Notes: generated from the letters alone by a model not told the origin. Counted from the stretch's first letter, positions 3,201 through 46,026 are shown. The stretch is 64,000 bases of DNA from Balanoglossus misakiensis (GCA_040954595.2 CM082588.2:7341947-7405946); one strand, 5' to 3'. A program made the numbers and translations.

Positions 3201-5390
3201 GGAAATGCATGCAATGGTTGACGATTTGCCTTTTTTTCTGAATTTTGGAATGTACAGATGTACTTGAAGTACTGTAAAACACTTTTTTTTCGCGAGTCAA
3301 AATTTTCGCGATATCGAGAGAGGCCACTGTTACGCGAGTAATAATTTTCGCGTTTTCACACATTGTTCTTTCACAACTATATGTACGCGAGTCTTTATTT
3401 TTCGCGTTGTTTTGGCTCTCGCGTATTTAGCGTAAATTTAATGCTCGCGAAAATAAAGTGTTTTACAGTAACTAGAGTTGAATGATATGTAATCAGTACT
3501 AAATTGTCAATGGGTAGACAAACATAACAATCAATCAATCAATCAACAAAGTTTATTAGCGCCAAAATCCAAAAAGAAATTTTGCCCAATGACGCTCATG
3601 GTTAAACCACACTGTATGCTCTTTCGAACATATGAGTTTTAAGTTTTCTTTTGAAAGTCTCCAGGTTTGTAGATTCCCTGATGTCAAGAGGTAGTGCGTT
3701 CCACAGTTTAGGGGCTGCATAGGAGAAGGCACGGCCGCCATAAGTCTTGTTTTTGTAGGTTGTACATGTTAAAAGTTTCTTGGTGGATGAACGCAGTGTA
3801 CGAGTGGGAGTGTATGGCTGCAGTAGATCACTGATGTAAGCTGGAGTCTGGTTTTGGATAACTTTGAAAGTTATCAACAAAATTTTGTAGTCGATCCTGA
3901 GACGAACTGGTAACCAATGCATATGTTATGTCTAAACCTTGCTTACCTGTAAGGTTTTTCGCCCGTATGAGTTCTGACATGCTTTCGAAGGTCGCTTAGC
4001 GTTGTAAAATATTTAGTACACCCGTCTGAATCACAGTTGAAGGTTTCTCCTGAATGCAGTCGCTTGTGTGCTTTTAATCTGTGCAGACGAAGAGAGTTGT
4101 ACTTTGGTAATGGATTATGGACATATCATATCACGTGTGTGTGTGTGAGTGTGCACATTTGAGAACACTATGTATCTGTGTATAACTGTGTATGTATAGT
4201 ACGTGTACATGTGTGTGTCTGTATTTTGGACCACCAAACTCTGGACTGAATAGATAACCTTAAAGGGAAGCGGTCGCCGCCCCGCGTTTGTTTATTGATA
4301 AACATTAGAATTCATCCACAAATCCCTGAAATTAGATAATTCTTAGAATGAACGAAGCAGCCAACCGTAGCGTAGACTGGGCATGACAGCAACTGGAGAT
4401 CCTACTAGGTCGTGGCGACTGCAGTGGGGTTTGTGCTGGTATGGGAGGACATATTCTCATCAGGGGGAGGGGGGGGGGTTACACCAACGCGGCGCAACAA
4501 CTGCTAATTACAATGCTGGATGCCAGCAAATGATTATGTGTAGTGTAGAACTCCCAACATTCATGGGACAACTGGCCTCTCATGATGCCCTGTATTATTT
4601 CGGCACTTTGTACAAAAGTCAGTAGTATCATAACCACAGGCGTTGGAATCACACTGCTGTGATCTCCTAATTCAACCTGTAAATATCTGCAGCTTGAATC
4701 AAGTGATCGCAGAAGAGTGACTGAGTCTGGCGCTTATGATCATAACGGATGTGTTTATGTCACCTACCTGTATAGGGTGTTAAATGATTTGTTGCACTCT
4801 TGGAGTTCACATGAAAATGGCTTCTCATTGGTATGTACTCGAACGTGGATTTTTAAACTGTACGAGGTTAGAAACGCCTTCCCACATCCCGACTGCGAGC
4901 ACACAAAACTGTATTCTCCTTTGTGAGTCTTTTGGTGTGTTTTCAAATTACCCGCTGTACTATAGGTTCTCGTACAACCTTGGTAGCTGCATTTATATCG
5001 TTTGATTTCTTTTGTTTGGGTATTGGGATCGCTGGTTTCAAGCGTTAAGGTAGCTCCCCCGATATCTTCGGGCATGACATTTCCTGATGTGCTGATCTGC
5101 ATGTGAATCTGATCTGGTGAAATTGTGTGGTGTATAAAACATCCACTTTCGCCATCTTCGAGAACGTCGGTTTCCGCCATCATAGAATTGTCGCCGTCAC
5201 CGCAGCGGTGTCTCCCTTGTCCCATTCCTTCAATAAAAATCTGAGTCTGATCAAACTCGGTCGACACATAGTCGTCGTCGTTTTCAGCCGTCTCGTCCGG
5301 GTTTGTCTCTTCCTCCTCCTGGCTTTCGCTGCCATTGCCAAAATTACTGTCGGGTTGTTCTTCAAGTACAGTTCGCTCGTCGTCCGCCAT
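296..5390 (-). CDS. MTF1: Metal-responsive transcription factor 1 (six C2H2 zinc fingers), 5' part; continues beyond the window's left edge
   Basis: Phase-consistent GT-AG exons 5390-4768, 4078-3947, 2866-2793, 2068-1974, 1635-1480, 464-296. They encode [25 protein letters not shown]...[23 protein letters not shown] (six MTF1-type fingers), preceded by the conserved [15 protein letters not shown] segment. Start Met (MADDER, 5390) is inferred. Confidence 0.93.
1326..1418. mobile_element. Small piggyBac-like MITE (TTAA target site, CCCTT termini)
   Basis: ttaa-cccttccacc ... ggtggaaggg-ttaa inverted termini in an MTF1 intron. Confidence 0.55.
2570..2739. mobile_element. hAT-like MITE (second copy at 51161-51332)
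   Basis: cagtgtgccctctaa ... ttagaaggtacactg terminal inverted repeats; the same ~170 bp recurs at 51161-51332 with a near-perfect 8-bp flanking duplication (gatcctag/gatgctag). Confidence 0.6.
3270..3470. mobile_element. TA-flanked MITE (Tc1/mariner-like)
   Basis: tactgtaaaacacttt ... aaagtgttttacagta inverted termini; related copy at ~2183-2345 and a fragment at ~51690-51724. Confidence 0.65.
3527..3922 (-). mobile_element. 5'-truncated LINE (L2/CR1-group) 3' end
   Basis: [22 protein letters not shown]...[17 protein letters not shown]...[10 protein letters not shown] is the typical ORF2 C-terminus; followed on the minus strand by AATAAA and a (TTGA)n tail. Confidence 0.85.
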
Positions 5391-7791
5391 GATGGAAAAT
5401 TTGGTCGTGAAGACTGACAATATTATCAATATTCCAGTTCGACGATTCATCTTTGTGATAAATGAAATCAGCACGCAATGTTGTGAGTTTAAATCCTATA
5501 TACGATTTTACAAAAAATAATAAATGTTTATATTAGAGAAAATATGGGCTATTCTGTGTGGAATAAAATATTTCATTGGATGAATCAACACTGAGCTAGA
5601 AATAATCCGATAACTATTTAAATGGTCTATGAGAGCTTGCATAATACAATGTACATTGCATGACGATACCATGGTAATGACAGATTTTTATCTAGGTGAA
5701 CGTGATATGAGAGCCGGCAAAGTGCAATATATGTTTTACTATGGGTGGGAATTCTCTTAGAGTTCGAACAATTTTAAAAGTCTATTTCGGAGAACTCACA
5801 AAGGTCATAGCGGGTTACCTTGATTAACTTTCGGAATTGAACGTTGGTGGCGCTGCCGGACAGACGAGGTCACCTCCAGGTTACTTTCTTTGTTTTACCT
5901 GTAAAGTTTACAATTCTGTTACTTTTTTACGGCCCAAAGAACAATAATAGGAGAAAGGCTTGATGTATAGGTGGAAGAAATGGTATAGTCAACGACATTT
6001 TCTATCAACACGAGAATAGACAATAGATAAAACTTGGCTTAGGCCAATATTATTGTGATGCTGACAGGGACTGTGATTCCTGATTCCTCAACTATCTCCT
6101 ACAATTTCCGATTGTTACTTTGTCAATATGAACTGACATACAACAAATAACACTTTGACACCTCGGTTTGTCCAATTGGAATATATTTGCTGTGTTGTTG
6201 ATTTGCACCAACGTACAAAGTCCACGTGAGCCTCGGTATGGCAATAACCAAGCGCACAAATTTTCCACCTGTTGTCCGACGACCAAAATGGCGGTGTGAC
6301 TTTTTATGTTCAACAAGACTTGAAAATGCTGCAGACATCTGGTTAATGGTAATCCCAGCCTTGCACACATTCTTGTATGCTCTGACTTAAATCTTCGGAG
6401 ACAACAATTGAACACCATAGGAGGGTGAAACTCTTCAACAGGTGAGAAATCATAGAAATAACAGACGAGTCAGCGTTTTTAAGTGGGTGTGGGCGGGGTT
6501 AGGCAAACAGCCGATATTTCCTCCTATATTGTCTGGGTGCCACTAGAAGGAAGTGTAAAATGGCGCTGACTTCAGAAAGGTGTGAATCCGCGCAAATATA
6601 CAAACAACCTTAAACTTCTGTCCTGTGTGTCGGTGTGTCGGTCCTAATAGATTGTGTGGCCTGACATTTATATACTCGACAACCACTTTTACACCACGGC
6701 GGAGTGAAAACACTTCAACAGGTGAGCATTTCATGAACGCGCATAGCAATGTAGATAGTGTCATATTCGATAATTACACGCAGTTGCTCCTAATCAATTA
6801 AATTGACCATTGGCAGTCACCTTTACATTTCAAGAAAGACGAAGTTTGTTCAATGTTGATTTTTATACCAAACGGGTCTTAAATTTCTATTCGGACAAAG
6901 GGCGTATATCGGTCACCTCATATCGACTACATGTATATGATTTATTGTCCTGCCGTTTTTTCAACTAACATATGTCCTAGAAAATGGACACTCTAACAGA
7001 ATGTTCTCTACGCAAAGATGACGTTGTTTAGACAACCATTTACAATATTTTAAAATGTATAACAATGACCCATTACTTAACAGTGATAGTGACCAATCAC
7101 AGATTTTCAGTGGTTGCACACGCGAAAAAAGAGCGCCACCATACGTTCTTTCGAACACTCAAATACGCCATTTCAGCTATATATGGCGATATGTTAGTTG
7201 GAGGTGACCGTATACCTTTCAGGATTGTATTTAATATTTAATTGATGCACCGTTGCTGTCTAATGCACGAATCAATTATTGTTGGCTGTACTTTGAACTG
7301 TATCCATGACAACCGAGGCTGAAAGGCCTAGAAGAGTGCGTCAACCTCACAAACAAAGTTTTGGAAGTGTGCCAATTCTGGCGTCGCGATTCCTGACGTG
7401 TCACGTCTCAGTACAGATATGTGGTACATTGACAAACGTTGTACAAATGCTTTACTTAAAACTGATCCAGATTAATGGAAAGTAAAACCTTGTTGTGAAA
7501 TAATATTTGAGTTTTTGTTGCCATTGTATCAAAACCATTTTCTGAACAGGAACAGTACTGTTTAAAATATCATAGACCAGTATGTACCACCGTTTACCGA
7601 TAAATGGTGGTAATGACGCTGTGCTCACATTGTAGGTTGATGTAGACATTTCGAATGGTAGTTCTCGTTTCATAAAATACATAATGTCTACTGACCGATT
7701 CACTCGCATTTTACAGCAAATACCTTTTAGAAATACCGGTAGTATAAAAATATCTCTATAAACACGAACCTAATTTTATTCTCAATTAGAA

Positions 7792-10700
7792 ATGGCAAAG
7801 GTGAAGAATCGTTTGTTGGTTGTCGGAGAGGAATGGTGGCCGAGAAGTCGCAATATTGCAACATGTCTTACTGAGAGACAATTGGCCATCGATCATGCTG
7901 ATGGAAACAACCAGGTTTACTTCATGGCGTTACAGGCTTCTGACAAAGAAGTTGAAGAAGCAAGGCGTCATGGAGTGGAGTTGATTCTCCCAATCAAAGA
8001 AGGGAAGCCGACAAGTGATTGGTTAATTTTACACGAACACTATTTTCAACAGTTAAAGAAATATCGCCCAATTACGACCATATACGGTACTGCTTGTAAG
8101 GATGGAACTGCCAGTACAGCAAAGAGTATTCAAGCGAAGGTTTTCCCATCTGCGGACTTCGTTCCTGTCTATTCTGACATACCGGAAAACATGAACCTCA
8201 ATCCTTCAGACTTGGCTGCTAAAGATGATGAAATGATGCAATATGCAGAGACGTCCTCTGTCATTATATCTGTTGGACCAACAGTACACGAGGAGTTGAA
8301 GATGAAGATTCGAGCTCTGCTAGACTCACAAGTGGAGAATGTTCTGTACATTCCTTGGATGAAGAAAGATGTAGACGAGATTTCGCTCAAGAAAAGAGAC
8401 TTAAAGACTGTTGAAGTCTTATCTGTGCACACAATATCAGACCTACAGGATCTGGAGGAATTCGAAACAGCAGCTCGAGGCATGGGGAAACTTGCTTACG
8501 CGTACAGTTATATTCCCAGAGACACAAAGTGGAAGTTCAAAGGATTTATAGCGTCAGATCCTGCGCAATGCAAAACGTGTAAGCAGAAGCTAGAGACGAT
8601 GGCTGAGTCAGATCAGTTAATTGTCAATCTATACCGAAACGACACACCAATAAACCAGTTAAAGAAAGACTTGAGGCAGTGTGACATCCTGGTAAACTTC
8701 ACAACTAAAGGCGACCCATTTGGTGTGATTGGTCTTCTATCCTGCGCTGCTGGTGTGCCCACTGTACAGCCAAGGCAATCAGGTCTTGCAAACTTCACAA
8801 AAGAACACTTCCCCTTACTCGGTGTACCATACTGTGACGTGGGACCAAACGAAAATGTCAAGAGCGGAAGTGAAAAGTGGGCACGTGCTGTCAATGGTAT
8901 CATAAGTGATTATGACCGTGCAAAGAATGCGGCACAAGAACTGAAGACGGCACTGCAAATATCTGCTGAGAATGGTGTTATTGCTGACCACCACAAGAAG
9001 CTTTTGAAAAGTGTACGTTGTCCTACAGAATGTGATGACCCTGCTGAAGAGCCTTCCAAAGGTAAGTGGTGATACATGAAAGAGACGATTAAGTACATGT
9101 TTTTATAGAAACATTATTCGATCCTTTTAACGAAACATAGTAAATCGCCATATTAGACATATTTTCCAATTTAAAAATTAACCGATGCAGCGTAGTGATA
9201 AAAGCATTTCAATACACAAAAGCTATTAAAAGTTTTACCAAAATCAATTTGCGCTTGAAGTGTTTATGTAGATTAAATGGAAAGGTGATGGTAAATTCTA
9301 ATACGTAATTTCACACCTGTCACTAGGGGAAAAGAAAACATTTCCTTACAAAGGACAACAAGCTTTGAATTCCGGTAGCAGCCAAACCGAAAAGCAAGTC
9401 CAAGATGTCCCTAGCAACAACGGGTCCAAAAATGGTGATCTGAATAATGGTGAAGGTGGCCAGCAAAATCCTGACAGTGGACAGACGCATGAAGTTCAAC
9501 ACTCAGTCAACTCGAATCTGGGTAAGGGTGCTGATTGGGTACATTTGTACGCCTAGTGAAAATTACTCGTCTGTCCTTATAAAACAATATTCATACAATA
9601 TTCAAACTGAAAACCAAATGAAATGGTTCTCGTGGCCCCAGCACAGAAGATAATGCACGGAACTATAGTTGCTCACATTCACTCGTCCCTGTATACTACT
9701 TATTGTATCGTTCGTCATATAATTTGATGATGCATTTGCCAATATATGATGTAGAATACAGTTGTGTAATGAAACAAAATGAGGTTTGAATTAAGAACAT
9801 ATTTGTACTCGAGGATGTCTCTCTTCATGTTGAGCAATGGAAACGTTCGTTTATGCGTTTGTTTGTTTGTTTGTTTGTATTGTCTGTCTGGTGTATGTGT
9901 TTGTGTTTAGATCAAGTGAATAGGGACTCGCTTAATTCTTATCTGGGCAATTAAAACATCCATTGCGGATGTGGATTTTGTCTTTGAAATTTTGTGATAG
10001 GTCTTGCTTCGAATCCTGTACAACACATGTCAATTCTAATACATTGTACTCATTGTATGTTATTTCAGGGGAAATAGTAGTCAAGCTTAAGGTGTCTGGT
10101 CCAACCTTGACTCCAGACCAGGTTGAACTCATCGAAAATGAGATAATCAACAACAGCAGCTCTGAAAACGATTTACCAAAAGTCAAAGAGCATCTCAACA
10201 GTGTGGGAAACATACAAATTGAAGAAATTAAGCGGGGTAGTGTAAATGTTGTATTGACTTGCCAGACATCAAAGTCAGTGGAGAGACTATGGCGTGACTA
10301 CAGGCAAGGGATACTGGGAGATCTGTTTAAGGCAGACATGATCACACCCGAATTGCTCCACAAACTCAATGTATCTGACGTTAACCTGAAGACAACCATA
10401 GAGACATGGAGATATCAACTATGTCTGGCAGAATTGAAGTACTTCAAGGAAGGCAAGTCTAATAGTTTAACAATGTAGTTATTGTTGCCGAACATTGTGT
10501 ATTCGTTTGAATTGAAGGATTTTACCTGAAACATTTGGTTATTTCCATTTCCAGACTCATGTCTGCGTTGTGTCTTTGTCGTACTTTCTATTTGTACACT
10601 CACGTTCTTATGGATCATTGTCAAAATTGCAAATGCGTTCAACGATATATGTCATGACGATTTCGTCACTTTAATTATTATAGGCTATGTACCGGAAGTG

Positions 10701-13700
10701 AAATCTTCTGAGGTCTGTGGTTTATGTGGAGAAAAGTGTACAGAACTTGGAGAGATGTTGACTAAACAAGGTAATTACTATTTATGGATGGCAGCATTTG
10801 GCAAGAATTATTTTTCAAGTTGAGTGTTTCTGTGACTGCTTTTGTTTCTAGCTGACAGGCCATGAGTTTAAAGATTTTTTTCATTGGCACTTAAGAATTC
10901 AATCAGAAGAAAAAAATACTGTTGAAAAATTCTCTTTTATGAGAATGCATATCATTTATTGAGCCTTTCTCTGCGTCGTTTGTGAATGTAGATGACAAGA
11001 GCGCAGTTGTTGCCGTGGAGACTGACAGGTCTGTCTATGCCACACGCCAAAACAGAATCGGTTTATCAAAACTACTTGGTGGTTCCGGCACTTTGGAAGC
11101 TGAGATAGATGTTGATGTGGGAGACACACAGACACCAATCGTATTGTTGATAAAAATACAGCGCCCTCTACAGTTGTCTTCGTTGATGGATGAACGGCCA
11201 GAAGTTCTTGGTGTCCTTGGAATCAGACGGTGTTTGATTTTGGATAGCCAACAGTTGTCTTCGATCACCTTACAAGAGGGAGAGACATTCAGATATGATA
11301 GAGAAGGTTAGTGTTCACAAACATTTAGGCAGGGAAGTTGGTCAAACAATACTATATTCAACGAATCAAAACAAATAAGCTTGCTGCTGAAATTTGTTCT
11401 ACAGGGAATGTTTTGGTTTAGTTGGCTGCTTGTTGTAGTATGATTCTAAAGATAGGTCTGTACTATTTTCGCATTGATTTGCACATCGAGCGAAAATTAA
11501 AATAGATAGTGCCCATTTATTTGCATTTCACGACCTCCGACCCAATTGCAAAGGGGGTTACATCATATCAATCATATATATAACATTTTGCTACAATGTT
11601 AAATCACATTTTCATCAGAACTGAAGAGACTTGTCAATCAAAGTGGCGTCAACATCTTGAAAACTGGCACCAAAGAATCGGACAAGATTCTGGCGGAATC
11701 TTTTTCAAAAGAAGGAGCTGCTCGTGTTTTGGAACCAATCTCGACAGACAACTATCTCTCTGTCATCACTTCGCTCTTTAACGAAATCAAGGAGATTAGA
11801 GAACTACTACAATCCAAGAAGATGGAATATACGATCCTTAAGGGGAAAAGTGAAGAAAGTGAGCAGTCACATGAGCTTCTGAAGAAAATGATGGAAAGCA
11901 GTGAAACTCAAAGTTCCAAACTACTCACGACAAATACCAAGCTGAAAGACAACATCCGACAGTTACATCAGACTATCGATGAACTTCAGGAAACAAAAAC
12001 TGCAATTGCGCCACCTGTAGACAAAAACATCGAAGGTAATGCAGTTATCTGCAACATATCCATCCATCCATTATATCATCTCCTCCAAATAAACAAAATA
12101 TGCTCCCAACAAGTTCAATTATAGGCCGTATTTATTTTCTATTACAATCTTGTGTCCAGGAGCAAAAGTGAATTTCCGAGTTCGGTCTGAAAAACTTCCC
12201 CTTCTTTTCCGCAATTGACATTCCTTGCAAAATGATTATACATGGTCCGGCATATTTATTTTACAACTAAATTTTTAGTTTGCGTCACTTTCAACTGATT
12301 TTCCCAAGGGAATATCGTTTCAATAAACTCGATCAATATTGACGCCGGATATTTTGGTTGTTTTAGTTTCTTTTGGGAGACACTTTACGCTCTGGCGCTA
12401 ACTAATATTTCATTCACTCAACTCAACACTCTCACAGAATGTTGGAATACCATAATTAAAAAGCTTTTTTTTTCAATAGACCAATCTCAATTTAAAATTA
12501 AAATCATGAAATCAGTTTATAACCCAAATTGTTTTTACTATTCAATAGAATTTTCGTTTACACACAAACCGGAATTGAAGCATACAGCAAAGTCCTATGA
12601 AGAAATACTGCAGAGATTTCCCTGCCATTTTACCTGGAAACTCGAAGAATTTTGTGACAAGAGTTTTGAGGTGAGGATATTTATTTGCATTATTTGCATT
12701 TGAAGTACAGGTTTGTGAAATTTTAAAGCATTTCATAACAGCTGTATCTGAATTGTTGAAATGTCACGAAAACCAAGGAAATTTTTATTTCTCTCAGATG
12801 TTAATAATGACGCAAATTGAATTATAAAAAGCAACATGCTGAATATCCACTTTTTGCATCATTTAAAGTGTAATATTTAAAAATTTGTCAATCATTAGAG
12901 TTTTCTTCATCAATCACATCTTCTTATTTCATTCCAATCATGCGTCTGATGTTTTCACACACAGGTATTTTATTAATTGGAAGGTGGCTATAAACGATAA
13001 ATCAGTAGCTTAGACGATCTCACGATATTGCGTCATACGACAAGTTCGAGCCTATACCCCACTGACACATAAGGAGATTTCTTTATCTGTTTATGTTTCA
13101 GTAGGGTATAGGCCCGAACATAGCGCGAGCGCTCCTATGACGTGAAATCGGGAGATATTATCGTTTTTAGCTACCTTTATTACAATCAATAAAATACCAA
13201 CATATCATCTGTACAAGCACCTGGGTTTTCACATGACACTGTAACATGCCTTTCCATGTACTGTAGGTCTTACAGAGCAGATTGGACGACAGACTTAAAT
13301 ATCACAACCAGGCGTTCTCTCCAGTTCCCCATAAAGCTATGGAAGGTTACCTGTACGTGTCCAAACTGAGATCAGAAGACAAGAGAGATCCAAGCGCCGC
13401 TTTGAAGTGGTTTGATGACGCCCTCACCGACAACCAGAAAGAACTCGACAGCTGTGATGGTGACGACGATGGTCCACTTGGTGATAAGTTGGTTCTTCTT
13501 GCAGATAAAGCATGGGTTCATTTCATGTCGGGTGAGATGAAAAGAGTTGATGAAACACTGAAGTTGATAGCAACTTTGTCACTTGATAAATTGTCAGGGA
13601 AAGAGAAAGCGTATGTATATGCTCACAAGGGTGTCTCTCTTGCTTATTTTGTCAAGAAAACGTGTGATGAGGGAGTTGATAGCTTTGATCGTGCTTTAGT

Positions 13701-14478
13701 AGAACTTCCAGAACAAACAGATTGGCTGTTTTGGCAAGCACTTGTCCTTTTACAAAAACGTGATCGTGTCTGTATAGATTCAAAATGTAAGGAAGCTTTA
13801 CAAATAATGGCACAAGAAAGAAATTTGCTTGAGAGAGTTCTTAAGAAAAATGCCCATCACAGCTATGCTTTGGCGCTTTTAAGTGACCTGTCACTCAATG
13901 AAGGTCGCTATGAAGAAGCAGGTCAACTCACCCAGAAAGCACTCGAATTAACCCCTTTATCCCATTTCGTGGTGGATTCTGCATATCTTTATTACTGCCA
14001 CAGCAATGTTGGAGACTTCGAAAAAGCACTGCAAGTTATTCACAATGCTGCAGCACAAGATCCAGACAATCCATTTATCGCGTGGAACCTAGGAGTCACA
14101 TACGTGACCAAATACCGACGCAATCCGATAGAAAGCAATCGTCAGTGCCTGTTAAAAGCCATAGAGTGTTTCGACAAAGCAGTTGCATATGCAGGTGGTT
14201 TGTATCCCGACGCTTCTCTCCAGAAGGCCCGTGCCCTCAGATACTTGAAACAGTACAGTGATGCATATGAAATATATACCCATCTGATCAGCACCCTCCG
14301 TGACCCATGTTACATACTATGGGCATGTTATGGTCTTGCCTTGGTTTACCAAGCACAAGATGACTCTGCCAAAGCACTGAAATACCTAAACATAACAGAA
14401 GCCTGTGGTCAGGAGTATTGCTGGGGCAAGCATGCACTGGAGTACAAAGCAAGCTTATCTGAACAGAAAAAGAACTAA
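7792..14478 (+). CDS. Copy 1: GT4-like / TRADD-N-like / coiled-coil / IFIT-like TPR multidomain protein (~1333 aa)
   Basis: Exons 7792-9061, 9327-9521, 10069-10452 (GC donor), 10684-10770, 10992-11306, 11619-12035, 12549-12670, 13267-14478 join in frame (4002 nt). Motifs: DPFGVIGLLSCAAGVP (GT-B); RGSVNVVLTCQTSKSVERLWRDYRQGIL (TRADD-N-like); PCHFTWKL plus TPRs (IFIT-like). An acceptor AG at 7788-7789 implies an upstream exon. Confidence 0.85.
12964..13198. mobile_element. Fold-back MITE in intron 7, shared by all three copies (also ~25197-25433 and ~44512-44747)
   Basis: ggtattttatt...aataaaatacc termini with a nested internal palindrome gttcg(a/g)gcctataccccactgacacataa...ttatgtgtcagtggggtataggcccgaac. 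Confidence 0.7.
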
Positions 14479-17270: not shown

Positions 17271-19714
17271 CTGTAGGCGACAGCATAAAAAACCACGTCG
17301 CCGTTCCCTACATCTGATTTTAATCAGATTGGACGAAACCATGGTAATAACAGATTTTTATCTAGGTGAGCTTGGTATGAGAGCCGGCGAAGTGCAATAT
17401 ATGTCTTGACTATGGGTGAGAATTCTCTTGGAGTTCGAACAATTTTAAAAGTCTATTTCGGAGATTAACTTTCGGAATTGAACGTTGGTGGCGCTGTCGG
17501 ACAGACGAGGTCACCTCCAGGTTACTTTCTTTGTTTTACCTGTAAAGTTTACAATTCTGTTACTTTTTACGGCCCAAAGAACAATAATAGGAGAAAGGCT
17601 TGATGTGAAGGTGGAGGAAATGGTATAGTCAACGACATTTTTTATCAAAACGAGAAAAGACAATAGATAAAACTTGGCTTAGGCCAATATTATTTTGATG
17701 CTGGTATGGACTGTGATTCCTGATTCCCCATCTCCTACAATTTCCGATTGTTACTTTGTCAATATGAACTGACATACAACAAATTACACTTTGACACCTC
17801 GGTTTGTCCAATTGGAATATATTTGCTGTGTTGTTGATTTACACCAACGTTCAAAGTCCACGTGAGCCTCGGTATGGCAATAACCAAGCACACAAATTTT
17901 CCACCTGTTGTCCGACGACCAAAATGGCGGTGTGACGTTTTATATTCCACAAGACTTGAAAAGGCTGCAGAGACCTGATTATTCGTAACCCAAGCTTAAA
18001 CATTCTTGTAGCCTCTCTGGTTTAAATCTTCGAAGACCATCGTTGAACACCACGGGAGGGTGAAACTCTTCAACAGGTGAGGAATCACGAAAACGCTCGA
18101 CAGAACTTAGTCAAGAGTTAATGAGCTGCTCTTATTTGCATAAACCGAAATTACCATGCCTAGTGACAGGTGCATATACTGAATCAACAGTAAATTTTCA
18201 TTTGCATATACGTACACGATACAGAGCGTAAGATAAAACCTGGTTGAGGGGCGTATATCTGTCACATGACTGAGAGATCGATTTCTGCACGAATTGATTT
18301 TAGCATACAGGCTGTATGCCTTTCAACACATAAGTTAGCGTTTTAAGAATACCGAAGTGATTAATGCAATTCGGTAATCGAAAAAATATTGAAGTGACCG
18401 ATAATATGATCATCAGAACCTTATTAATTGCGTCATTTTCGGTAATTTAGGACGCTGTTTCTGTAAAGTTTTAACATATCACTTCATCATATTAATGTAA
18501 TACGGCGTCTTTTTAAAATCCCCCATAAATCTTGGTGTTGTTGATTAGCCATAATTTAAACTGAAGTGGGTGTGGGCGAGGTTAGGCAAACACCTTATAT
18601 TTCTCCCATTTTGTCTGCGTGCCACTAAGGAGGTGTAAAAGTGGCGCTGACTTCAGACAGAAAACTGCTGGTGTGAATCCGTATAGATCCGCAACAACCT
18701 TAAACTTCTGTCCCGTGTGACTGTGTGTCGGTGTCAAGATTGTGTTTGTGGCCTCACATTTAATCATCGACAACCACTTTTACACCACGTCGGAGCGTAT
18801 AGCAATGTAGATAGTGTCATATTCGATAATTACACGCAGTTGCTCCTAAAATCAATGATGTACCAAAATTAAATTGACCATTGGCAGTCACCTTTACATT
18901 TCAAGAAAGACGAAGTTCGTTCAATGTTGATTTTTATACCAACCAGGTCTTAAATTTCTATATTCGGACAAAGGGCGTATATCGGTCACCTCATATCGAC
19001 TAATGATTTATTGTCCTGCCGTTTTTTCAACTAACAAATGTCCTAGAAAATGGACACTCTAACAGAATGTTCTCTACGCAAAGATGACGTTATTTAGACA
19101 ACCATTGACAATATTTTAGAATGTGTAACAATGACCCATTACTTAACAATGAACGTGACCAATCACAGATTTTCAGTGGTTGCACACGCGGAAAAAGAGC
19201 GCCACCATACGTTCTTTAGAACACTCAAATGCGCCATTTCAGCTATATATGGCGATATGTTAGTTGGAGGTGACCGTATACCTTTCAGGATTGTGACTAA
19301 CATTTTATTGATGCACCGTTGCTGTCTAATGCACGAATCAATTATTGCTGGCTGTACTTTGAACTGTATCCATGACAACCGAGGCTGAAAGGCCCAGAAG
19401 AGTGCGACAACCTCACAAAGTTTCTGGGAGTGTGCCAATTCTGGCGCCGCTATTCCTGCCGTTTCACGTCTCAGTACAGATATGTGGTACATTGGAAAAC
19501 GTTGTACAAACGCTTTACTTAAAACTTATCCAGATTAATGGAAAGTAAAACCTGGTTGTGAAATAACGCCTGGAATGTCAATATTTGAGTTTTTGACCCC
19601 GTTGTATCAAATCAGTTTTCTGAACAGAAACAATATTAGTTCAAAATATCATAGACCCGTATGTACCACCGTTTACCGATAAATTGTGGTAATGACGCTG
19701 TGCTCACATTGTAG

Positions 19715-19958: not shown

Positions 19959-22900
19959 ATGGCAAAGGTGAAGAATCGTTTGTTGGTTGTCGGAGAGGAG
20001 TGGTGGCCGAGAAGTCGCAATATTGCAACATGTCTTACTGAGAGACAATTGGCCATCGATCATGTTGATGGAAACAACCAGGTTTACTTCATGGCGTTAC
20101 AGGCTTCTGACAAAGAAGTTGAAGAAGCAAGGCGTCATGGAGTGGAGCTGATTCTCCCAATCAAAGAGGGGAAGCCGACAAGTGATTGGTTAATTTTACA
20201 CGAACACTATTTTCAACAGTTAAAGAAATATCGCCCAATTACGACCATATACGGTACTGCTTGTAAGGATGGAACTGCCAGTACAGCAAGGAGTATTCAA
20301 GCGAATGTTTTCCCATCTGCGGACTTCGTTCCTGTCTATTCTGACATACCGGATAACATGAACCTCGGTCCTTCAGAATTGGCTGCTAAAGATGATGAAA
20401 TGATGCAATATGCAGAGACGTCCTCTGTCATTATATCTGTTGGACCAACAGTACACGAGGAATTGAAGATGAAGATTCGAGCTCTGCTAGACTCACAAGT
20501 GGAGAATGTTCTGTACATCCCTTGGATGAAGAAAGATGTAGACGAGATTTCGCTCAACAAAAGAGACTTAAGTAAGACTATTGAAGTCTTATCTGTGCAT
20601 ACGATTTCAAACCTACAAGATCTGGAGGAATTCGAAGCAGCAGCTCGTGGCATGGAGAAAGTAGCTAAGATTTACAGTTATTTTCACAGAGAAATAAAGT
20701 GGAAGTTCAAAGGACTGTTAGTGTCTACACCATGTAAGAAGATTCAGCAGCAGCTGGAGACGATGGCGAAGTCAGATTGGTTAGTCATCAATTTATACCC
20801 AAACGACACATCGATAGACCAGTTAAAGAAAGATTTGAGGCAGTGTGACATCCTGGTAAACTTCACAACTAAAGGCGACCCATTTGGTGTGATTGGTCTT
20901 CTATCCTGCGCTGCTGGTGTGCCCACTGTACAGCCAAGGCAATCGGGTCTTGCAAACTTCACAAAAGAACACTTCCCCTTATTTGGTGTACCATACTGTG
21001 ACGTGGGACCAAAGGAAAATGTTGACAGCGGAAGTGAAAAGTGGGCACGTGCTATCATGGAGATTCTGAGTGAATATGGTCGCGCCAAGAAAACATCACA
21101 GGAATTGCAGTCAGCACTCCACAAATCGGCAGAGGATGGTGTTATATCTGACAACCAAACGAAACTCATGGGTTGTGTTGCTTGTCCTGGGGATTGTGTC
21201 GATCCTGTAGAAGAGCCCCCCAAAGGTAAATACAATGCAATAAATAGATAGAAGGGTAACAGATAACAGAATCACGTGTTGCCAGTTAACGGCTACGCAA
21301 AATATCTTCGTTAAAGAGAATCAAAACAGTGTAATAAATGATGGTCAGCTTAAGAATTAAAACAGCTGTTGAGTGAATTGATATTCTGTTTTATTAATTA
21401 AATTACAGCTAAAATCAAATTTTGTAAGTTGTAGTATTTTTATTATGCGCTAGGTAAGGAGGAAACACTTAAAGACCAACAACCCAAGAATTCTGGTGGC
21501 AGCCAAGCAGAAAAGCAAGTCCAAGATGTCCCTAGCAACAACGGGTCCAAAAATGGTGATCTGAATAATGGTGAAGGTGGCCAGCAAAATCCTGACAGTG
21601 GACAGACGCATGAAGTTCAACACACTCTCAACTCGAATCTGGGTAAGGGTGCTGATTGGGTACATTTGTGCGCCTAGTGAAAATTACTTGTCTGTCATTA
21701 TAAAACAATATTCATACAATATTCGAACTGAAAACCAAATAAAATGGTTCACGTGGCCCCAGCACAGAAGCTAACGCACGGAACTATAGTTGCTCACATT
21801 CACTCGTCCCTGTATACTGGTTATTGTATCGTTCGTCAAATAATTGGATGATGCATTTGCCAATATATGATGTAGAATACAATTGTGTAATGAAACAAAA
21901 TGAGGTTTGAATTAAGAACATATTTGTACTCGAGGATGTCTCTCCACATGTTTAGCAATGGAAACGTTCGTTTATGCGTTTGTTTTGTGTTTTTGTTTGT
22001 TTGTTTGTTTGTTTGTTTGTTTGTTTGTTTGTGTTTGTTTGTTTGTTTGCTTGCTTGTTTGTTTGTTTGTTTGTTTGTTTGTTTGTATTGTCTGTCTGGT
22101 GTCTGTGTGTTGTGTTTAGATCAAGTGAATAGGGACTCGCTTAATTCTTATCTGGGCAATTAAAATATCCATTGCGGATGTGGATTTAATCAGTGAAATT
22201 GTGTGATAGGTCTTGCTTCGAATCCTGTACAACACATGTCAATTCTAATACAATGTACTCATTGTATGTTATTTCAGGGAAAATCGTAGTCAAGCTTAAG
22301 GTGTCCGGTCCACCCTTGACTCCAGACCAGGTTGAACTCATCGAAAACGAGATAATCAACAACAGCAGCTCTGAAAACGATTTACCAAAAGTCAAAGAGC
22401 ATCTCAACAGTGTTGGAAACATACAAATTGAAGAAATCAAGCGGGGCAGTCTGAATGTTGTATTGGCATGCCAGACATCAAAGTCAGTGGAGAGACTATG
22501 GCGTGACTACAGGCAAGGGATACTGGGAGATCTGTTTAAGGCGGACATGATCACACCCGAATTGCTCCACAAACTCAATGTATCTGACGTTCACCTGAAG
22601 ACAACCATAGAGACATGGAGATATCAACTATGTCTGGCAGAATTGAAGTACTTCAAGGAAGGTAAGTCTAATATTTTAACAATGTGGTTATTGTTGCCGA
22701 ACATTGTGTATTCGTTTGAATTGAAGGATTTTACCTGAAACCTTTGGTATATTTCCATTTCCAGACTCGTGTCTGTGATGTGTCTTTGTCAAACTTTCTA
22801 TTTGTACACCAACGTTCTTATGGATCATTGTCAAAATTGCAAATGCGTTCAACGATATATGTCATGACGATTTCGTCACTTTAATTATTATAGGCTATGT

Positions 22901-25900
22901 ACCGGAAGTGAAATCTTCTGAGGTCTGTGGTTTGTGTGGAGAAAAGTGTACAGAACTTGGAGAGATGTTGACTAAACAAGGTACAGTAATTACTATTTAT
23001 GGATGACAGCATTTGGCAAGAATTATTTTTCAAGTTGAGTATTTCTATGACTGCTTTTGTTTCTAGCTGGCAGGCCATGAGTTTGAAGATTTTTTTTCAT
23101 TAGCACTTAAGAATTCAACCAGAAGAAAAAATACTGTTGAAAAATACTCTTTTATGAGAATGCATATCATTTATTGAGACTTTCTCTGCGTCGTTTGTGA
23201 ATGTAGATGACAAGAGCGCGGTTGTTGCCGTGGAGACTGACAGGTCTGTCTATGCCACACGCCAAAACAGAATCGGTTTATCAAAACTACTTGGTGGTTC
23301 CGGCACTTTGGAAGCTGAGATAGATGTTGATGTGGGAGACACACAGACACCAATCGTCCTGATGATAAGAATACAGCGCCCTCTACAGTTGTCTTCGTTG
23401 TTGGATGAACGGCCAGAAGTTCTTGGTGTCCTGGGAATCAGACGGTGTTTGATTTTGGATAGTCAACAGTTGTCTTCAATCACCTTACCAGAGGGAGAGA
23501 CATTCAGATATGATAGAGAAGGTTAGTGTTCACAAACATTCCTTTTAACAGAAAAATCGTAGTGCAGGGAGTTTGGTCAAACAATACTCTATTCAACTAC
23601 ATTGTAATCAAAACAAATAAGCTTGCTGCTGTAATTGTTCTAAAGGGGTTTGATTTTAAAGGTAGGTCTGTACTATTCTCCCATTGATTTGCACATCGAG
23701 CATAAACTAAAAAAGATAGAGCCCATTTATTTGCATTCCACGGCCCCCGACACAATTGCAAAGGGGGTTAAATCGTATCGATCATATATAACATTTTGCT
23801 AACAATGTTGAATCACATTTTCATCAGAACTGAAGAGACTTGTCAATCAAGATGGCGTCAACATCTTGAACACTGGCACCAAAGAATCGGACAAGATTCT
23901 GGCGGAATCTATTTCAAAAGAAGGAGCTGCTCGTGTTTTGGAACCAATCTCGACAGACAACTATCTCTCTGTCATCACTTCGCTCTTTAACGAAATCAAG
24001 GAGATAAGACAACTACTACAATCCAAGAAGATGGAATATACAATCCTTAAGGGGAAAAGTGAAGAAAGTGAGCAGTCACGTGAGCTTCTGAAGAAAATGA
24101 TGGAAAGTAGTGAAACTCAAAGTTCCAAACTACTCACGACAAATACCAAGCTGAAAGACAACGTCCGACAGTTACGTCAGACGATCGATGAACTTCAGGA
24201 AACGAAAACTGCAACTGCGCCACCTGTAGACAAGAACATCGAAGGTAATGCAGTTATCTGCAACATATCTATCCATCCGTTGTATCATCTCCTCCAAATA
24301 AACAAAATATGCTCCCAACAAGTTCAATTATAGGCCGTATTTATTCTCTATTACAATCTTGTGTCCAGGAGCAAAAGTGAATTTCAGAGTTCGGTCTGAA
24401 AATCTCCCCCTTCTTTCCCGCAATTGACATTCCTTGCAAAATCATTATACATGTTCCGGCATTTTTATTTTACAACAAAATTTTTAGTTTGCGTCACTTT
24501 CAACTGATTTTCCCAAGGGAATATCGTTTCAATAAACTCGATCAATATTGACGCCGGATATTTTGGTTGTTTTAGTTTCTTTTGGGAGACACTTTACGCT
24601 CTGGCGCTTACTAATATTTCATTCACTCAACTCAACTCTCTCCCAAAATGTTGGAATACCATAATAAAAAAGCCCCTTTTTTAATGGAGCAATCTCAATT
24701 TAAAATTAAAATCATGAAATCAGTTTATAACCCAAATTGTTTTTACTATTCAATAGAATTTTCGTTTACACACAAAATGGAATTGAAGCATACAGCAAAG
24801 TCCTATGAAGAAATACTGAAGAGGTTTCCCTGCCACTTTACCTGGAAACTCGAAGAATTTTGTGATCATAGTTTAGAGGTGAGGACATTTATTTGCGTAT
24901 TTGAAGTACAGGTTTGTGAAATTTTAAAGCGTTTCATAACAGCTGTATCTGACTTGATGGAATTTCACAAAATTAAACACGGAAATGTTTGTCGAACTCC
25001 TATTCCACTCAGATGTTAATAATGACAGAAACTGTAACATAAGAAGCAACATGCTGAATATCCAGTTTTCGCATCATTTTAAAAAAATTGTCAATCATTT
25101 GTTGGCAAGTGAGTTAATGAGACCACCCTAGAGTTTTCTTCATCAATTAAATCTTCTTATCTCATTTAAATCATGCGTCTGATGTTTTCACAGACAGGTA
25201 TTTTATTAATTGGAAGGTGGCTAAAAACGATAAATCAGTAGCTTAGACGATCTCTCGATTTCGCCTTATAAGAGCTATGTTCGGGCCTATACCCCACTGA
25301 CACATAAAGAGATTTCTTTATCTGTTTATGTGTCAGTGGGGTATAGGCCCGAACATAGTGTGAGCGCTCGTATGATGTGAAATCGGGAGATCTTATCATT
25401 TTTAGCTACCTTAATTACAATCAATAAAATACCAACATAGCATCTGTACAAGCACCTGTATTTTCACATGACACTGTAACATGCCTTTCCATGTACTGTA
25501 GCTCTTACAGAGTGATTTGGACAACACCCTTAAATATCACAACCAGGAGTTCTCTCCAGTTCCCCATAAAGCAATGAAAGGTTACCTGTACATGTCCAAA
25601 CTGAGATCAGAAGACAAGAGAGATCCAAGTGTCGCTTTGAAGTGGTTTGATGACGCCCTCACCGACAACCAGAAAGAACTCGACAGCTGTGATGGTGACG
25701 ACGATGGTCCACTTGGTGATAAGTTGGTTCTTCTTGCAGATAAAGCATGGGTTCATTTCATGTCGGGTGAGATGGAGAGAGTTGATGAAACGCTTAAGTT
25801 GATAGCAACTTTGTCACTTGATAAATTGTCAGGGAAACAGAAAGCGTATGTATATGCTCACAAGGGTATCTCTCTGACTTATTTTGTCAAGAAAATGTGT

Positions 25901-26713
25901 GATGAGGGAGTTGATAGCTTTGATCGTGCTTTAGTAGAACTTCCAGAACAAACAGATTGGCTGTTTTGGCAAGCATTCTCTCTTTCACGAAAACGTGTTC
26001 GTGTCTGTATAGATTCAAAATGTCAGGAAGCTTTACAAATAATGGCACAAGAAAGAAATTTGCTTGAGAGAGTTCTTAAGAAAAATGCCCATCACGGCAA
26101 TGCTTTAGCACTTTTAAGTGACCTGTCACTCAATGAAGGTCGCTATGAAGAAGCAGGTCAACTCATCCAGAAAGCACCCGAATTAACCCCTTTATCCCAT
26201 TTCACGGTGGAGTATGCACGTCGTTATTACTGCCACAGCAATGTTGGAGACTTCGAGAAAGCACTGCAAGTTATTCACAATGCTGCGGCACAAGATCCAG
26301 ACAATCCATTTCTCGCGTTTAACCTAGGAGTCACATACGCGACCAAATACGAACACAATCCGATAGAAAGCAATCGTCAGTGCCTGCTAAAAGCCATAGA
26401 GTGTCTCGACAAAGCAGTTGCATATGCAGGTGGTTTGTATCCCTTTGCTTCTATCTTGAAGGCCGCTGCCCTCGCATACTTGAAACAGTACAGTGATGCA
26501 TGTGAAATATATACCCATCTGATCAGCACCCTCTCTGACCCATATCACATAATATGGGCATGTTATAATCTTGCCCTCGATTACCAAGAACAAGATGACT
26601 CTGCCAATGCACTGAAATACCTAAACATAACAGAAGCCTGTGGTCAGGAGTATTGCTGGGGCAAGCATGCACTGGAGTACAAAGCAAGCTTATCTGAACA
26701 GAAAAAGAACTAA
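19959..26713 (+). CDS. Copy 2: GT4-like / TRADD-N-like / coiled-coil / IFIT-like TPR multidomain protein (~1330 aa)
   Basis: Exons 19959-21225, 21454-21642, 22278-22661, 22894-22980, 23207-23521, 23828-24244, 24757-24878, 25502-26713; all GT-AG, in frame (3993 nt). Confidence 0.85.
21980..22086. repeat. (TTTG)n microsatellite
   Basis: Expanded relative to the paralogous tracts at ~9858-9877 and ~41349-41394. Confidence 0.9.
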
Positions 26714-42200: not shown

Positions 42201-45200
42201 GGCTATGTACCGGAAGTGAAATCTTCTGAGGTCTGTGGTTTGTGTGGAGAAAAGTGTACAGAACTTGGAGAGATGTTGACTAAACAAGGTAATTACTATT
42301 TATGGATGACAACATAGGGCAAGAATTATTTTTCAAGTTGAGTTTTTCTGTGACTGCTTTTGTTTCTAGCTGGCAGGCCATGAGTTTGAAGATTTTTTTC
42401 ATAGGCACTTAAGAATTCAACCAGAAGAAAAATACGGTTGAAAAATACTCTTTTATGAGAATACATATCATTTATTGAGCCTTTCTCTGCATCATTTGTG
42501 AATGTAGATGAGAAGAGCGCGGTGGTTGCCGTGGAGACTGACAGGTCTGTCTATGCCACACGCCAAAACAGAATCGGTTTATCAAAACTACTTGGTGGTT
42601 CCGGCACTTTGGAAGCTGAGATAGATGTTGATGTGGGAGACACACAGACACCAATCGTATTGTTGATAAAAATACAGCGCCCTCTACAGTTGTCTTCGTT
42701 GTTGGATGAACGGCCAGAAGTTCTTGGTGTCCTTGGAATCAGACGGTGTTTGATTTTGGATAGCCAACAGTTGTCTTCGATTACCTTACCAGAGGGAGAG
42801 ACATTCAGATATGATAGAGAAGGTTAGTGTTCACAAACATTCCTTTTAACAGAAAAATCGTAGTGCAGGGAGTTTGGTCAAACAATACTCTATTCAACTA
42901 CATTGTAATCAAAACAAATAAGCTTGCTGCTGTAATTGTTCTAAAGGGGTTTGATTTTAAAGGTAGGTCTGTACTATTCTCCCATTGATTTGCACATCGA
43001 ACATAAAGTAAAATAGATAGAGCCTATTTATTTGCATTCCACGACCTCCGACCCAATTGTAAAGGGGGTTACATCGTATCGATCATATATAACATTTTGC
43101 TAACAATGTTGAATCACATTTTCATCAGAACTGAAGAGACTTGTCAATCAAGATGGCGTCAACATCTTGAACACTGGCACCAAAGAATCGGACAAGTTTC
43201 TGGCGGAATCTATTTCAAAAGAAGGAGCTGCTCGTGTTTTGGAACCAATCTCGACAGACAACTATCTCTCTGTCATCACTTCGCTCTTTAACGAAATCAA
43301 GGAGATTAGACAACTACTTCAATCCAAGAAGATGGAATATACGATCCTTAAGGGGAAAAGTGAAGAAAGTGAGCAGTCACGTGAGCTTATGATCGAAATG
43401 CTGGAAAGCAGTGAAACTCAAAGTTCCAAACTACTCACGACAAACACCAAGCTGAAAGACAACATCCGACAGTTACGTCAGACTATCGATGAACTTCAGG
43501 AAACGAAAACTCCAACTGCGCCACCTGTAGACAAAAACATCGAAGGTAATGCAGTCATCTGCAACATATCCATCCATCCGTTGTATCATCTCCTCCAAAT
43601 AAAAAAAATGTGCTCCCAACAAGTTCAATTATAGGCCGTATTTATTTTCTATTACAATCTTGTGTCCAGGAACAAAAGCGAATTTCAGGGTTCGGTCTGA
43701 AAACCTTCCGTTTCACTTTGTTTTTTCCCCTTTTTCCTGTAAGTGACATTCCTTGCAAAATGATTATACTTAACATGGTCCGGCATATCTATTTTACAAC
43801 TAAATTTTTAGTTTGCGTCACTTTCAACTGTTTTTCCCAAGGGAATATCGTTTCAATAAACTCGATCAATATTGACGCCAGATATTTTGGTTGTTTTAGT
43901 TTCTTTTGGGAGACACTTTACGCTCTGGCGCTTACTAATATTTCATTCACCGGTAACCGTTGAAATAACTTAACTCTCTCCCAGAATGTTGGAATACCAT
44001 AATAAACAAAAACTTTTTTCAATGGAGCAATCTCAATTTAAAATTAAAATCATGAAATCAGTTTATAACCCAAATTGTTTTTACTATTCAATAGAATTTT
44101 CGTTTACACACAAAACGGAATTGAAGCATACAGCAAAGTCCTATGAAGAAATACTGCAGAGGTTTCCCTGCCACTTTACCTGGAAACTCGAAGAATTTTG
44201 TGACTGGAGTTTTGAGGTGAGGACATTTATTTGCGTATTTGAAGTACAGGTTAATGAAATTTAAAAGCGTTTCATAACAGCGGCATCTGACTTGATGGAA
44301 TTTCACAAAAAAGACACGGAAATGTTTGTATATGTCGAACTCCTATTCCACTCAGATGTTAATAATGACAGAAACTGTAACATAAAATGCAACATGCTGA
44401 ATATCCAGTTTTCGCATCATTTTGAGATGAGATGAGACCACCCTAGAGTTCTCTTCATCAATCAAATCTTCATATTTCATTCCAATCATGCGTCTGATGT
44501 TTTCACACACAGGTATTTTATTAATTGGAAGGTGGCTATAAACGATAAATCAGTGGCTTACACGATCTCCCGATTTCGCGTCATACGACAAGTTCAAGCC
44601 TATGCCCCACTGACACATAAAGAGATTTCTTTATCTGTTTATGTGTCAGTGGGGTATAGGCCCGAACATAGTGCGAGCGCTCATATGACGTGAAATCGGG
44701 AGATCTTATCGTTTTTAGCTACCTTAATTACAATCAATAAAATACCAACATAGCATCTGTACAAGCACGTGTGTTTTCACATGACACTGTAACACGATTT
44801 TCCATGTACTGTAGTTCTTACAGTGTTATGCGGACAACCACCTTAAACATCACAACCAGGCGTTCTCTCCAGTTCCCCATAAAGCTATCAAAGGTTACCT
44901 GTACGTGTCCAAACTGAGATCAGAAGACAAGAGAGATCCAAGCGCCGCTTTGAAGTGGTTTGATGACGCCCTCACCGACAACCAGAAAGAACTTGACAGC
45001 TGTGATGGTGACGACGATGGTCCACTTGGTGATAAGTTGGTTCTTCTTGCAGATAAAGCATGGGTTCATTTCATGTCGGGTGAGATGGACAGAGTTGATG
45101 AAACGCTTAAGTTGATAGCAACTTTGTCACTTGATAAATTGTCAGGGAAACAGAAAGCGTATGTATATGCTCACAAGGGTGTCTCTCTTGCTTATTTTGT

Positions 45201-46026
45201 CAAGAAAACGTGTGATGAGGGAGTTGATAGCTTTGATCGTGCTTTAGTAGAACTTCCAGAACAAACAGATTGGCTGTTTTGGCAAGCATTATCTCTTTCA
45301 CAAAAACGTGATCGTGTCTATGGAAGTTCAAAATGTAAGGAAGCTTTACAAATAATGGCAAAAGAAAGAAATTTGCTTGAGAGAGTTCTTAAGAAAAATA
45401 CCCATCACAGCTATGCTTTGGCACTTTTAAGTTACCTGTCAGTCAATGAAGGTCGCTATGAAGAAGCAGGTCAACTCATTCAGAAAGCACTCGAATTAAC
45501 CCCTTTATCCAATTTCGTGGTGCCTTATGCACGTCATTATTACTGCCACAGCAATGTTGGAGACTTCGAAAAAGCACTGCGAGTTGTTCACATTGCTGCA
45601 GCACAAGATCCAGACAATCCATTTTTCGCATGTTACCTAGGAGTCACATACGCGACCAAATACGAACACAATCCGATAGAAAGCAATCGTCAGTGCCTGC
45701 AAAAAGCCATAGAGTGTTTCGACAAAGCAGTTGCATATGCAGGTGGTTTGTATCCCATTGCTTCTCTCTGGAAGGCCGTTGCCCTCACAAACTTGAAACA
45801 GTACAGTGATGCATGTGAAATATATACCCATCTAATCAGCACCCTCTCTGACCCATATCGCATACTAAATGCATGTTATAATCTTGCCGACACTTACCGA
45901 GCACAAAATGACTCTGCCAATGTACTAAAATACCTAAACATAACAGAAGCCTGTGGTCTGGAGTATTCCTTGGGCAAGTGTGCACATAAGGACAAAGCAA
46001 GGTTATCTGTACAGAAAAAAAAATAA
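39284..46026 (+). CDS. Copy 3: GT4-like / TRADD-N-like / coiled-coil / IFIT-like TPR multidomain protein (~1333 aa)
   Basis: Exons 39284-40553, 40819-41013, 41586-41969 (GC donor), 42202-42288, 42508-42822, 43129-43545, 44095-44216, 44815-46026; in frame. Confidence 0.85.

Follow-up and report, generated by a model that had tools for sequence, protein, structure and literature searches.

A variable IFIT-like domain at the C-terminus of tandem GT4-TRADD-N-like fusion genes in an acorn worm

Three tandem genes and their N-terminal modules

The window, meaning the whole stretch of 64,000 nucleotides of Balanoglossus misakiensis DNA analyzed here (GCA_040954595.2, CM082588.2:7341947-7405946), contains a three-fold tandem duplication that is visible when the window is compared with itself and that has a DNA identity of about 92%. 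Three intact tandem genes are present, each made up of 8 coding exons in the predicted splice model, with an unbroken frame of 1339 to 1340 amino acids. The encoded proteins carry, in order, a GT4-conflict glycosyltransferase-like domain, a TRADD-N-like domain, an unnamed domain, a coiled coil, and a TPR domain that folds like an IFIT in structure models. The genes and N-terminal features are as follows.

7792..14478, + strand: copy 1 gene, 8 coding exons, 1340 aa, frame unbroken, introns GT-AG or GC-AG
7792-9061, 9354-9521, 10069-10452, 10684-10770, 10944-11306, 11619-12035, 12549-12670, 13267-14478, + strand: exons of copy 1
19959..26713, + strand: copy 2 gene, same 8-exon layout, 1339 aa
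39284..46026, + strand: copy 3 gene, same 8-exon layout, 1340 aa
7792..9061, + strand: GT4-conflict glycosyltransferase-like domain, exon 1 of copy 1 (PF20706, E=7.8e-31, 107.8 bits against a cut-off of 26)
10069..10452, + strand: TRADD-N-like domain, exon 3 of copy 1 (PF20694, E=4.5e-4, 20.4 bits, under the cut-off of 23.7)
10944..12035, + strand: unnamed conserved domain followed by a coiled coil, exons 5-6 of copy 1 (no Pfam match in exon 5, weak coiled-coil matches in exon 6)

A sequence search of the PDB with the GT4 exon gave no meaningful match. The E-x7-E motif of the GT4 family is missing its second acidic residue in these copies. At the motif (about 8760-8790 in copy 1, with equivalents in copies 2 and 3), the first acidic position is D and the second is L or M in six of six sequences, so the effector may be an altered or inactive transferase. 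The TRADD-N match is likewise weak in the homologue P0001 (PF20694, E=0.0019). The unnamed middle domain spans about 170 to 200 residues and is conserved among acorn-worm homologues, of which P0001 has it twice and P0011 also carries it; an atlas search with it returned no match, and a profile match to TRADD-N was absent (probability 0.3%). NLR and STAND receptors place an NTPase between effector and sensor, whereas no NACHT or NB-ARC NTPase was matched by Pfam in exons 1, 3, 5, 6, and 8, all but the short exons of 29-56 aa (2, 4, and 7), or in P0001, P0002, and P0003 as whole proteins.

Copies 1 and 3 are almost identical over 8500-10000, where copy 2 differs at about 230 sites, while elsewhere the three are equidistant, which indicates gene conversion or unequal exchange. 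The donor of intron 3 gives GC-AG in copies 1 and 3 (10453 and 41970) and is GT in copy 2. The DNA upstream of copy 1 (5662-7635) is duplicated at 17332-19714, and satellite arrays of 237-240 bp, within 1.9-kb higher-order repeats, lie between copies 2 and 3 (31092-37515). The window also contains an exon of a C2H2 zinc-finger gene (4764-5495, - strand), divergent from copy 1, and a C-type lectin domain exon (60767-61156, + strand).

Relationship of the C-terminal domain to the IFIT family

The IFITs have been described as an interferon-linked family of jawed vertebrates with a chemically fixed ligand (PMC3688568), and the same paper examined TPR matches in acorn worms and lancelets and left them out of the family. 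The earlier note was right that an IFIT-like domain is present here; it covered that domain and one of its helices, and missed its place as the C-terminal module of a GT4-TRADD-N-like fusion. The features of the domain are listed below, with residues given in the order copy 1/copy 2/copy 3.

12549..12670, + strand: exon 7 of copy 1, with IFIT-like helix 1, CHFTW (12623-12637), the start of helix 2, and three-state K/H/W934 at 12659
12671..13266, + strand: intron 7 of copy 1, phase 0, GT..AG in all 3 copies, cutting helix 2 between E937 and V938
13267..13302, + strand: remainder of helix 2 in copy 1, with V/L/F938 (13267), R/D/Y942 (13279), and R/T/H946 (13291) equivalent to IFIT5 E33/T37/Q41; helical in both structure models
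13267..14478, + strand: exon 8 of copy 1, the main IFIT-fold TPR superhelix
13975 D/E/P (= R253), 13987 L/R/H (= K257), 14083 W/F/C (= H287), 14209 D/F/I (= F339), 14221, 14230, and 14320 W/W/N (= Q377), + strand: groove hotspot codons in exon 8 of copy 1
24757..26713, + strand: IFIT-like domain of copy 2 (exons 7-8), helix-2 key codons at 25502, 25514, and 25526
44095..46026, + strand: IFIT-like domain of copy 3 (exons 7-8), helix-2 key codons at 44815, 44827, and 44839

Pfam assigns TPRs to exon 8. Taken alone and compared with the PDB by sequence, this exon retrieved generic TPRs only and no IFIT, and no homologue of near length was found with it, so the link to the IFITs needed homologues and folds. 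The sole PDB match of exon 7 is IFIT2 (E=0.67), and the copies contain the N-terminal CHFTW motif and the helix 1-2 subdomain of the family. The homologue P0001 matches IFIT5 over residues 14-378 (E=1.3e-11). In the atlas, the top clusters are IFIT5/IFIT1-like at 0.97, ahead of a TTC22 cluster at rank 13 (0.96), with a recognition value of 2236 that is slightly under the tool's mark of 2300. The P0001 domain, modeled with AlphaFold2 (pLDDT 85), matches IFIT5 and IFIT1 with TM 0.71-0.79 and Z 31-32.4, the best non-IFIT Z being 21.9, and a model of copy 1 exon 8 (pLDDT 91.7) reaches TM 0.81-0.83 against RNA-bound IFIT5 (4hot/4hor), where non-IFIT rows stay at or below 0.53.

A profile search over 1.84 billion representatives, with 20 of its matches looked up, found further full-length relatives in acorn worms, a crinoid, and vertebrates, which carry the name IFIT-like. 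In a quick tree, rooted at the midpoint and built without a TTC22 outgroup from 31 of 36 rows (5 short ones dropped), 11 vertebrate domains lie on one side of a branch with SH-aLRT 100, and the copies group with acorn-worm proteins in a clade on a long branch. The acorn-worm domains thus appear to fall outside the vertebrate IFIT clade, while motif, fold, and retained contacts argue for their homology to it. The domain resembles a variable-pocket version of the IFIT scaffold and is not a canonical IFIT member.

Variation in helix 2 and along the groove

The starting point for the analysis of variation was a set of three strings that the earlier note read from helix 2, all of which are present in the sequence at the junction of exons 7 and 8. 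Exon 7 ends at 12670, 24878, and 44216 with DKSFE, DHSLE, and DWSFE in copies 1, 2, and 3, and exon 8 starts at 13267, 25502, and 44815 with VLQSRLDDRLKY, LLQSDLDNTLKY, and FLQCYADNHLKH. The bar drawn within each string corresponds to intron 7, which is phase 0 and GT-AG in all three copies (596, 623, and 598 bp) and splits the helix. The strings do not stand directly after CHFTW as was claimed: six residues (KLEEFC) intervene, and the quoted helix begins seven residues past the motif. Splicing of exon 7 to exon 8 is predicted, and it is backed by the unbroken frame and by acorn-worm database models that cross the junction free of gaps. Intron 7 contains an inverted-repeat (MITE-like) element in all 3 copies (12964-13198, 25197-25433, and 44512-44746), a stretch that is absent from one contig of a further sample.

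The by-eye register of the earlier note, given as uncertain by one residue, holds once homologues are used to fix it, and the sites that match IFIT5 E33/T37/Q41 also map to D34/R38/Q42 of IFIT1. An ungapped register suggested by a shallow profile, which would set E937/S941/D945 on E33/T37/Q41, was dropped on three results. The hydrophobic stripe L939/L943/L947 fits V34/I38/L42 only at +1, three stand-alone acorn-worm homologues have D-L-x-x-R at W+12 to W+16 in the D34-R38 pattern of IFIT1, and a deeper profile of nine sequences puts a one-residue gap in IFIT5 and IFIT1. The roles of E33, T37, and Q41 in IFIT5 and of their equivalents in IFIT1 are confirmed in print (PMC3950709, PMC9677429), with the reservation that E33A has only a weak effect in IFIT5 and that results for T37 and Q41 disagree between groups (PMC9677429). 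The charge reversal proposed among the paralogues is a real R-to-D change at the T37/R38 position.

Within residues 934-950, 9 of 17 positions vary, a concentration that is significant by permutation within the N-terminal half of the domain (P=0.0008), with the caveat that the helix-2 partition was chosen post hoc and its P value is optimistic, while the tests of A and B helices and of contacts outside helix 2 are independent of it. Against the whole domain, the same comparison gives P=0.17 (0.028 counting minimum changes), because other groove helices are equally variable. Three-state sites make up 3 of the 11 residues 936-946, where 0.13-0.23 are expected from intron pseudo-codons (P=0.0003-0.001). 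The variable codons of helix 2 differ at up to three bases, and seven codons interleaved with them (935, 937, 939, 940, 944, 947, and 948) are identical in DNA across all 3 copies. The variation lies on one helical face (P=0.02 for helix 2 alone). In the further sample (contigs from three runs of one study, phased within single contigs only), a fourth residue, Cys, occurs at 942 in one contig, and there is a new F938/D942 combination. Helix 2 is also highly variable among P0001, P0002, and P0003.

Helix 2 is not special in this respect but one hotspot of several, since the whole concave groove diversifies. In the model of copy 1 exon 8, the odd helices, taken as groove-lining because they carry the IFIT5 contacts, vary at 41 of 135 positions versus 14 of 145 for the even, outer helices (P=1.8e-5), with three-state sites at 10 versus 1; the result is the same when helices are transferred from the homologue model. 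Variation shows one-face periodicity (P=5e-5). Outside helix 2, half of the IFIT5 positions that contact RNA or have been mutated vary (10 of 20, versus a background of 62 of 382, P=3e-4), a test that left out the unmapped K48, K415, K426, and Q377 (Q377 was added later in the intron-control analysis) and in which D189, R192, and R307 lie in loosely aligned loops. With helix 2 included, 13 of 23 contact positions vary and hold 7 of the 14 three-state sites. Changes that are only synonymous show no enrichment on the groove helices (5/139 versus 8/144 on the outer ones). The last helix of copy 3, at its C-terminus (45969-46026), has 8-9 changes, nearly all private to that copy.

A home-made codon model of the three sequences gives an omega of 1.84 for the domain (P=0.007), and M2a is preferred over M1a (2dL=95) with 10.8% of sites at an omega of about 26. 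Posterior values of at least 0.95 were obtained for residues 934, 938, 942, 943, and 946. By partition, omega is 11.6 for helix 2, 3.5 for A helices, and 0.64 for B helices. The non-IFIT part of the protein has an omega of 0.43 (2dL=6.1, P=0.047), and the GT4 domain gave no comparable selection signal in the same model (2dL=2.6, P=0.27). Pairwise dN/dS was significant in two of three pairs for residues 1089-1340 (P=0.027) and was not significant for the whole domain (0.93, 1.56, and 1.71) or for helix 2.

Introns 3-7 read as pseudo-codons served as a neutral control, and it is here that an explanation by constraint that relaxed once RNA binding was lost, or by an artefact of gene conversion or multi-base mutation, can be weighed. 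Such an explanation would suit the number of variable sites in the whole domain, which is near neutral (85 of 443, versus 89 expected), and the mosaic ancestry at 8500-10000; in addition, variable counts on the A helices did not differ significantly from intron 7 alone (P=0.19). It does not account for three-state sites at 10 of 139 positions on the groove helices, where 1.7-2.9 are expected from introns, or for B helices that are below neutral (14 of 144 variable, versus 29-37 expected), and the alternation of variable with DNA-identical codons in intact frames also speaks against it. We regard this explanation as very improbable. Change at the variable residues appears to be selected and not random, and the predicted ligand tunnel, helix 2 included, appears to have diverged faster than neutral. 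By alignment, the variable residues are predicted to face that tunnel.

Ligand contacts, candidate function, and known systems

Computed energies of IFIT5-RNA binding are dominated by K150, R186, R253, K257, R260, and R294, and changes to K150 and R253 cut binding strongly (PMC9677429, the latter in its Table 5). The conserved basic RNA-binding tunnel formed by these residues and Q288 is not kept in the copies. Basic residues occupy 0, 2, and 0 of the six equivalent positions in copies 1, 2, and 3, compared with 1 each in three clade relatives, 1-5 in 15 other invertebrate or unnamed homologues, and 3-6 in 11 vertebrate domains. The equivalents of K150, R253, and R260 are non-basic in all three copies: the first is Tyr in all 8 clade members, the second is D/E/P, and the third, at a two-residue insertion, is Ser or Cys and never basic. 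The Q288 equivalent is N/N/Y in copies 1/2/3. R253 is also missing from stand-alone invertebrate homologues (0 of 15). Net charge of the domain is -7, -14, and -2 in copies 1, 2, and 3. The groove has further basic residues along it, R942, R946, and R1259 in copy 1 and R1100, R1177, and R1178 in copy 2, and with these arginines RNA binding in a new mode is possible.

The earlier note suggested that the paralogues have different pockets, giving them distinct RNA 5'-end or non-RNA specificities. Different pockets are supported, and of the two options the non-RNA one fits better. It is possible to imagine that the domain still binds RNA 5' ends, with pockets re-tuned in each copy for other caps or first nucleotides. 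The three three-state sites of helix 2 map exactly on E33/T37/Q41, the difference between T37 and R38 has been tied to the different ligands of IFIT5 and IFIT1 (PMC3950709), copy 1 retains an Arg at the R38 position, copy 2 retains the R186 and K257 equivalents, and mammalian IFIT paralogues are known to diverge in specificity (PMC4887208). We consider this unlikely nonetheless, given the non-basic K150, R253, and R260 equivalents, the loss of all six basic contacts from copies 1 and 3, and the negative charge of all three domains. RNA 5' ends have few chemical states, which would fit poorly with an omega of about 26 across the groove, and the selected sites of primate IFIT1 are mostly outside the tunnel (PMC12543323).

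Our preferred reading, which we favor by a modest degree, is that the copies are diversifying intracellular immune sensors for a fast-evolving and probably non-RNA pathogen ligand, with a protein or peptide as the likeliest candidate, and that these sensors are connected to an adaptor and an effector. The variable tunnel of the IFIT-like domain would bind a fast-changing pathogen molecule, and its ligand-bound state would be relayed by either the TRADD-N-like adaptor or the GT4-like module. This reading is built on computed gene structure, architecture, model fold, register, groove-focused amino-acid excess, and loss of most basic contacts; to these we add, by inference, that the variable residues face the tunnel (as the IFIT5 alignment suggests), that the proteins have an immune role, what class of ligand they bind, and that the domain is coupled to adaptor and effector. 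A bolder version, which we offer tentatively and would sooner doubt than accept, is that the IFIT fold is older than the jawed vertebrates and that acorn worms made a hypervariable receptor from it. In this version, the RNA tunnel would have lost its basic residues and gained, through strong positive selection, a new lining suited to reading proteins of pathogens. It would switch a GT4-TRADD-N effector with no NTPase involved, and a variable-receptor repertoire on an IFIT scaffold would be the outcome.

The fusion of a defense domain to an adaptor and an effector resembles integrated decoys. Alternatively, a viral antagonist of IFIT-like proteins may attack the groove, which either escapes or acts as bait and triggers the N-terminal modules. 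The same selection pattern would be expected, and this animal group also has stand-alone IFIT-like genes in which RNA contacts are retained. No such antagonist is known, however, and a decoy should look like its stand-alone target, whereas in this clade, which lies on a long branch, the conserved contacts are gone, so that we see only a slim chance for this explanation. Slimmer still is the chance of self/non-self recognition apart from pathogens, in which the ligand would be endogenous and polymorphic and the setting either allorecognition or a conflict over selfish elements. Hypervariability of the groove and extra variants in another sample suit any diversifying recognition, but no linked partner gene was identified within the window, and proteins of this class of architecture have been proposed to act against pathogens (PMC8195603).

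If the sensor reading is correct, the domain would be a candidate sensor for GT4-TRADD-N systems. It represents an IFIT-fold domain outside vertebrates, within an effector fusion, whose fastest change is at the positions used by IFIT5 to hold RNA. The domains of the three copies are about 85% identical and differ mainly in the pocket, and these near-identical natural variants make ligand switching in an IFIT scaffold directly testable.

GT4-TRADD-N fusions have been proposed as invertebrate anti-pathogen systems of hemichordates, cephalochordates, and cnidarians (PMC8195603), and the copies resemble them in having GT4, then a TRADD-N-like domain, then a C-terminal repeat domain. Rows with GT4, TRADD-N, and TPRs for Branchiostoma stand among the first 30 of 1690 GT4 places in the source data of Figure 4 of that paper, which also names TTC28-like TPR fusions; in the source data of its Figure 6, TPRs occur in 0 of 11 Saccoglossus rows. 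IFIT is unmentioned in its main text (0 matches), and the search of 12 of its 13 supplement files gave only 2 chance letter matches in total. Searches of the literature, excluding most subscription papers and bioRxiv supplements, found no report of an IFIT-like domain fused to GT4 or of selection in invertebrate IFIT-like proteins, and no passage on invertebrates was found in a 2026 review (PMC13197388). GT4+TRADD-N+TPR proteins are thus already known in print, and what was not found there is the IFIT identity and the pocket-focused selection.

The closest database proteins are orthologous acorn-worm fusions, P0001 (Glandiceps) and P0002 and P0003 (Ptychodera), which share the GT4 and IFIT-like domains at 42-66% identity over the matched part (P0001 has 42% identity over 94% of exon 8). 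They are annotated only as uncharacterized, and the models of P0002 and P0003 are incomplete in the TPR region. Acorn worms and a crinoid also have IFIT-like proteins that stand alone and are annotated in databases (e.g., P0012-P0015, P0019, P0023, P0028, and P0110). These are like the copies in their place on the invertebrate side of the tree, a loop that is one residue longer after CHFTW, and a common motif before helix 3. Unlike the copies, they lack GT4, as a scan of P0009 and 12 non-fused or partial models showed, and they keep a basic R186 equivalent in 16 of 16, R260 in 11 of 15, and Q288 in 10 of 15, with D and R at the D34/R38 positions in three. Within this group, P0019, P0023, P0028, and P0110 keep the R186, R260, and Q288 equivalents, three of them with the D34/R38 pair of IFIT1, and are candidate RNA-binding IFIT homologues outside jawed vertebrates.

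Compared with vertebrate IFIT5 and IFIT1 (PDB 4hor, 4hot, 5udi, and 5w5h), the copies share CHFTW, helix order, the superhelical fold (TM 0.74-0.83 and Z 31-32 in the models), and the E33/T37/Q41 positions of helix 2. They differ in being only about 16-19% identical, in forming the C-terminal module of a 1340-aa fusion, in lacking about two of the terminal helices seen in the homologue model, in the intron inside helix 2, in the lack of most basic RNA contacts, and in lying outside the vertebrate clade. Vertebrate IFIT genes encode a stand-alone protein, mostly in two exons (PMC3688568), whereas the copies have 8 coding exons and are fused to GT4 and TRADD-N-like domains. Mammalian IFIT1/1B show paralogue divergence with gene conversion (PMC4887208). 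Of three selected sites highlighted for primate IFIT1, two are outside the tunnel and one is at its exit (PMC12543323), whereas the selected sites of the acorn-worm copies map to the predicted tunnel.
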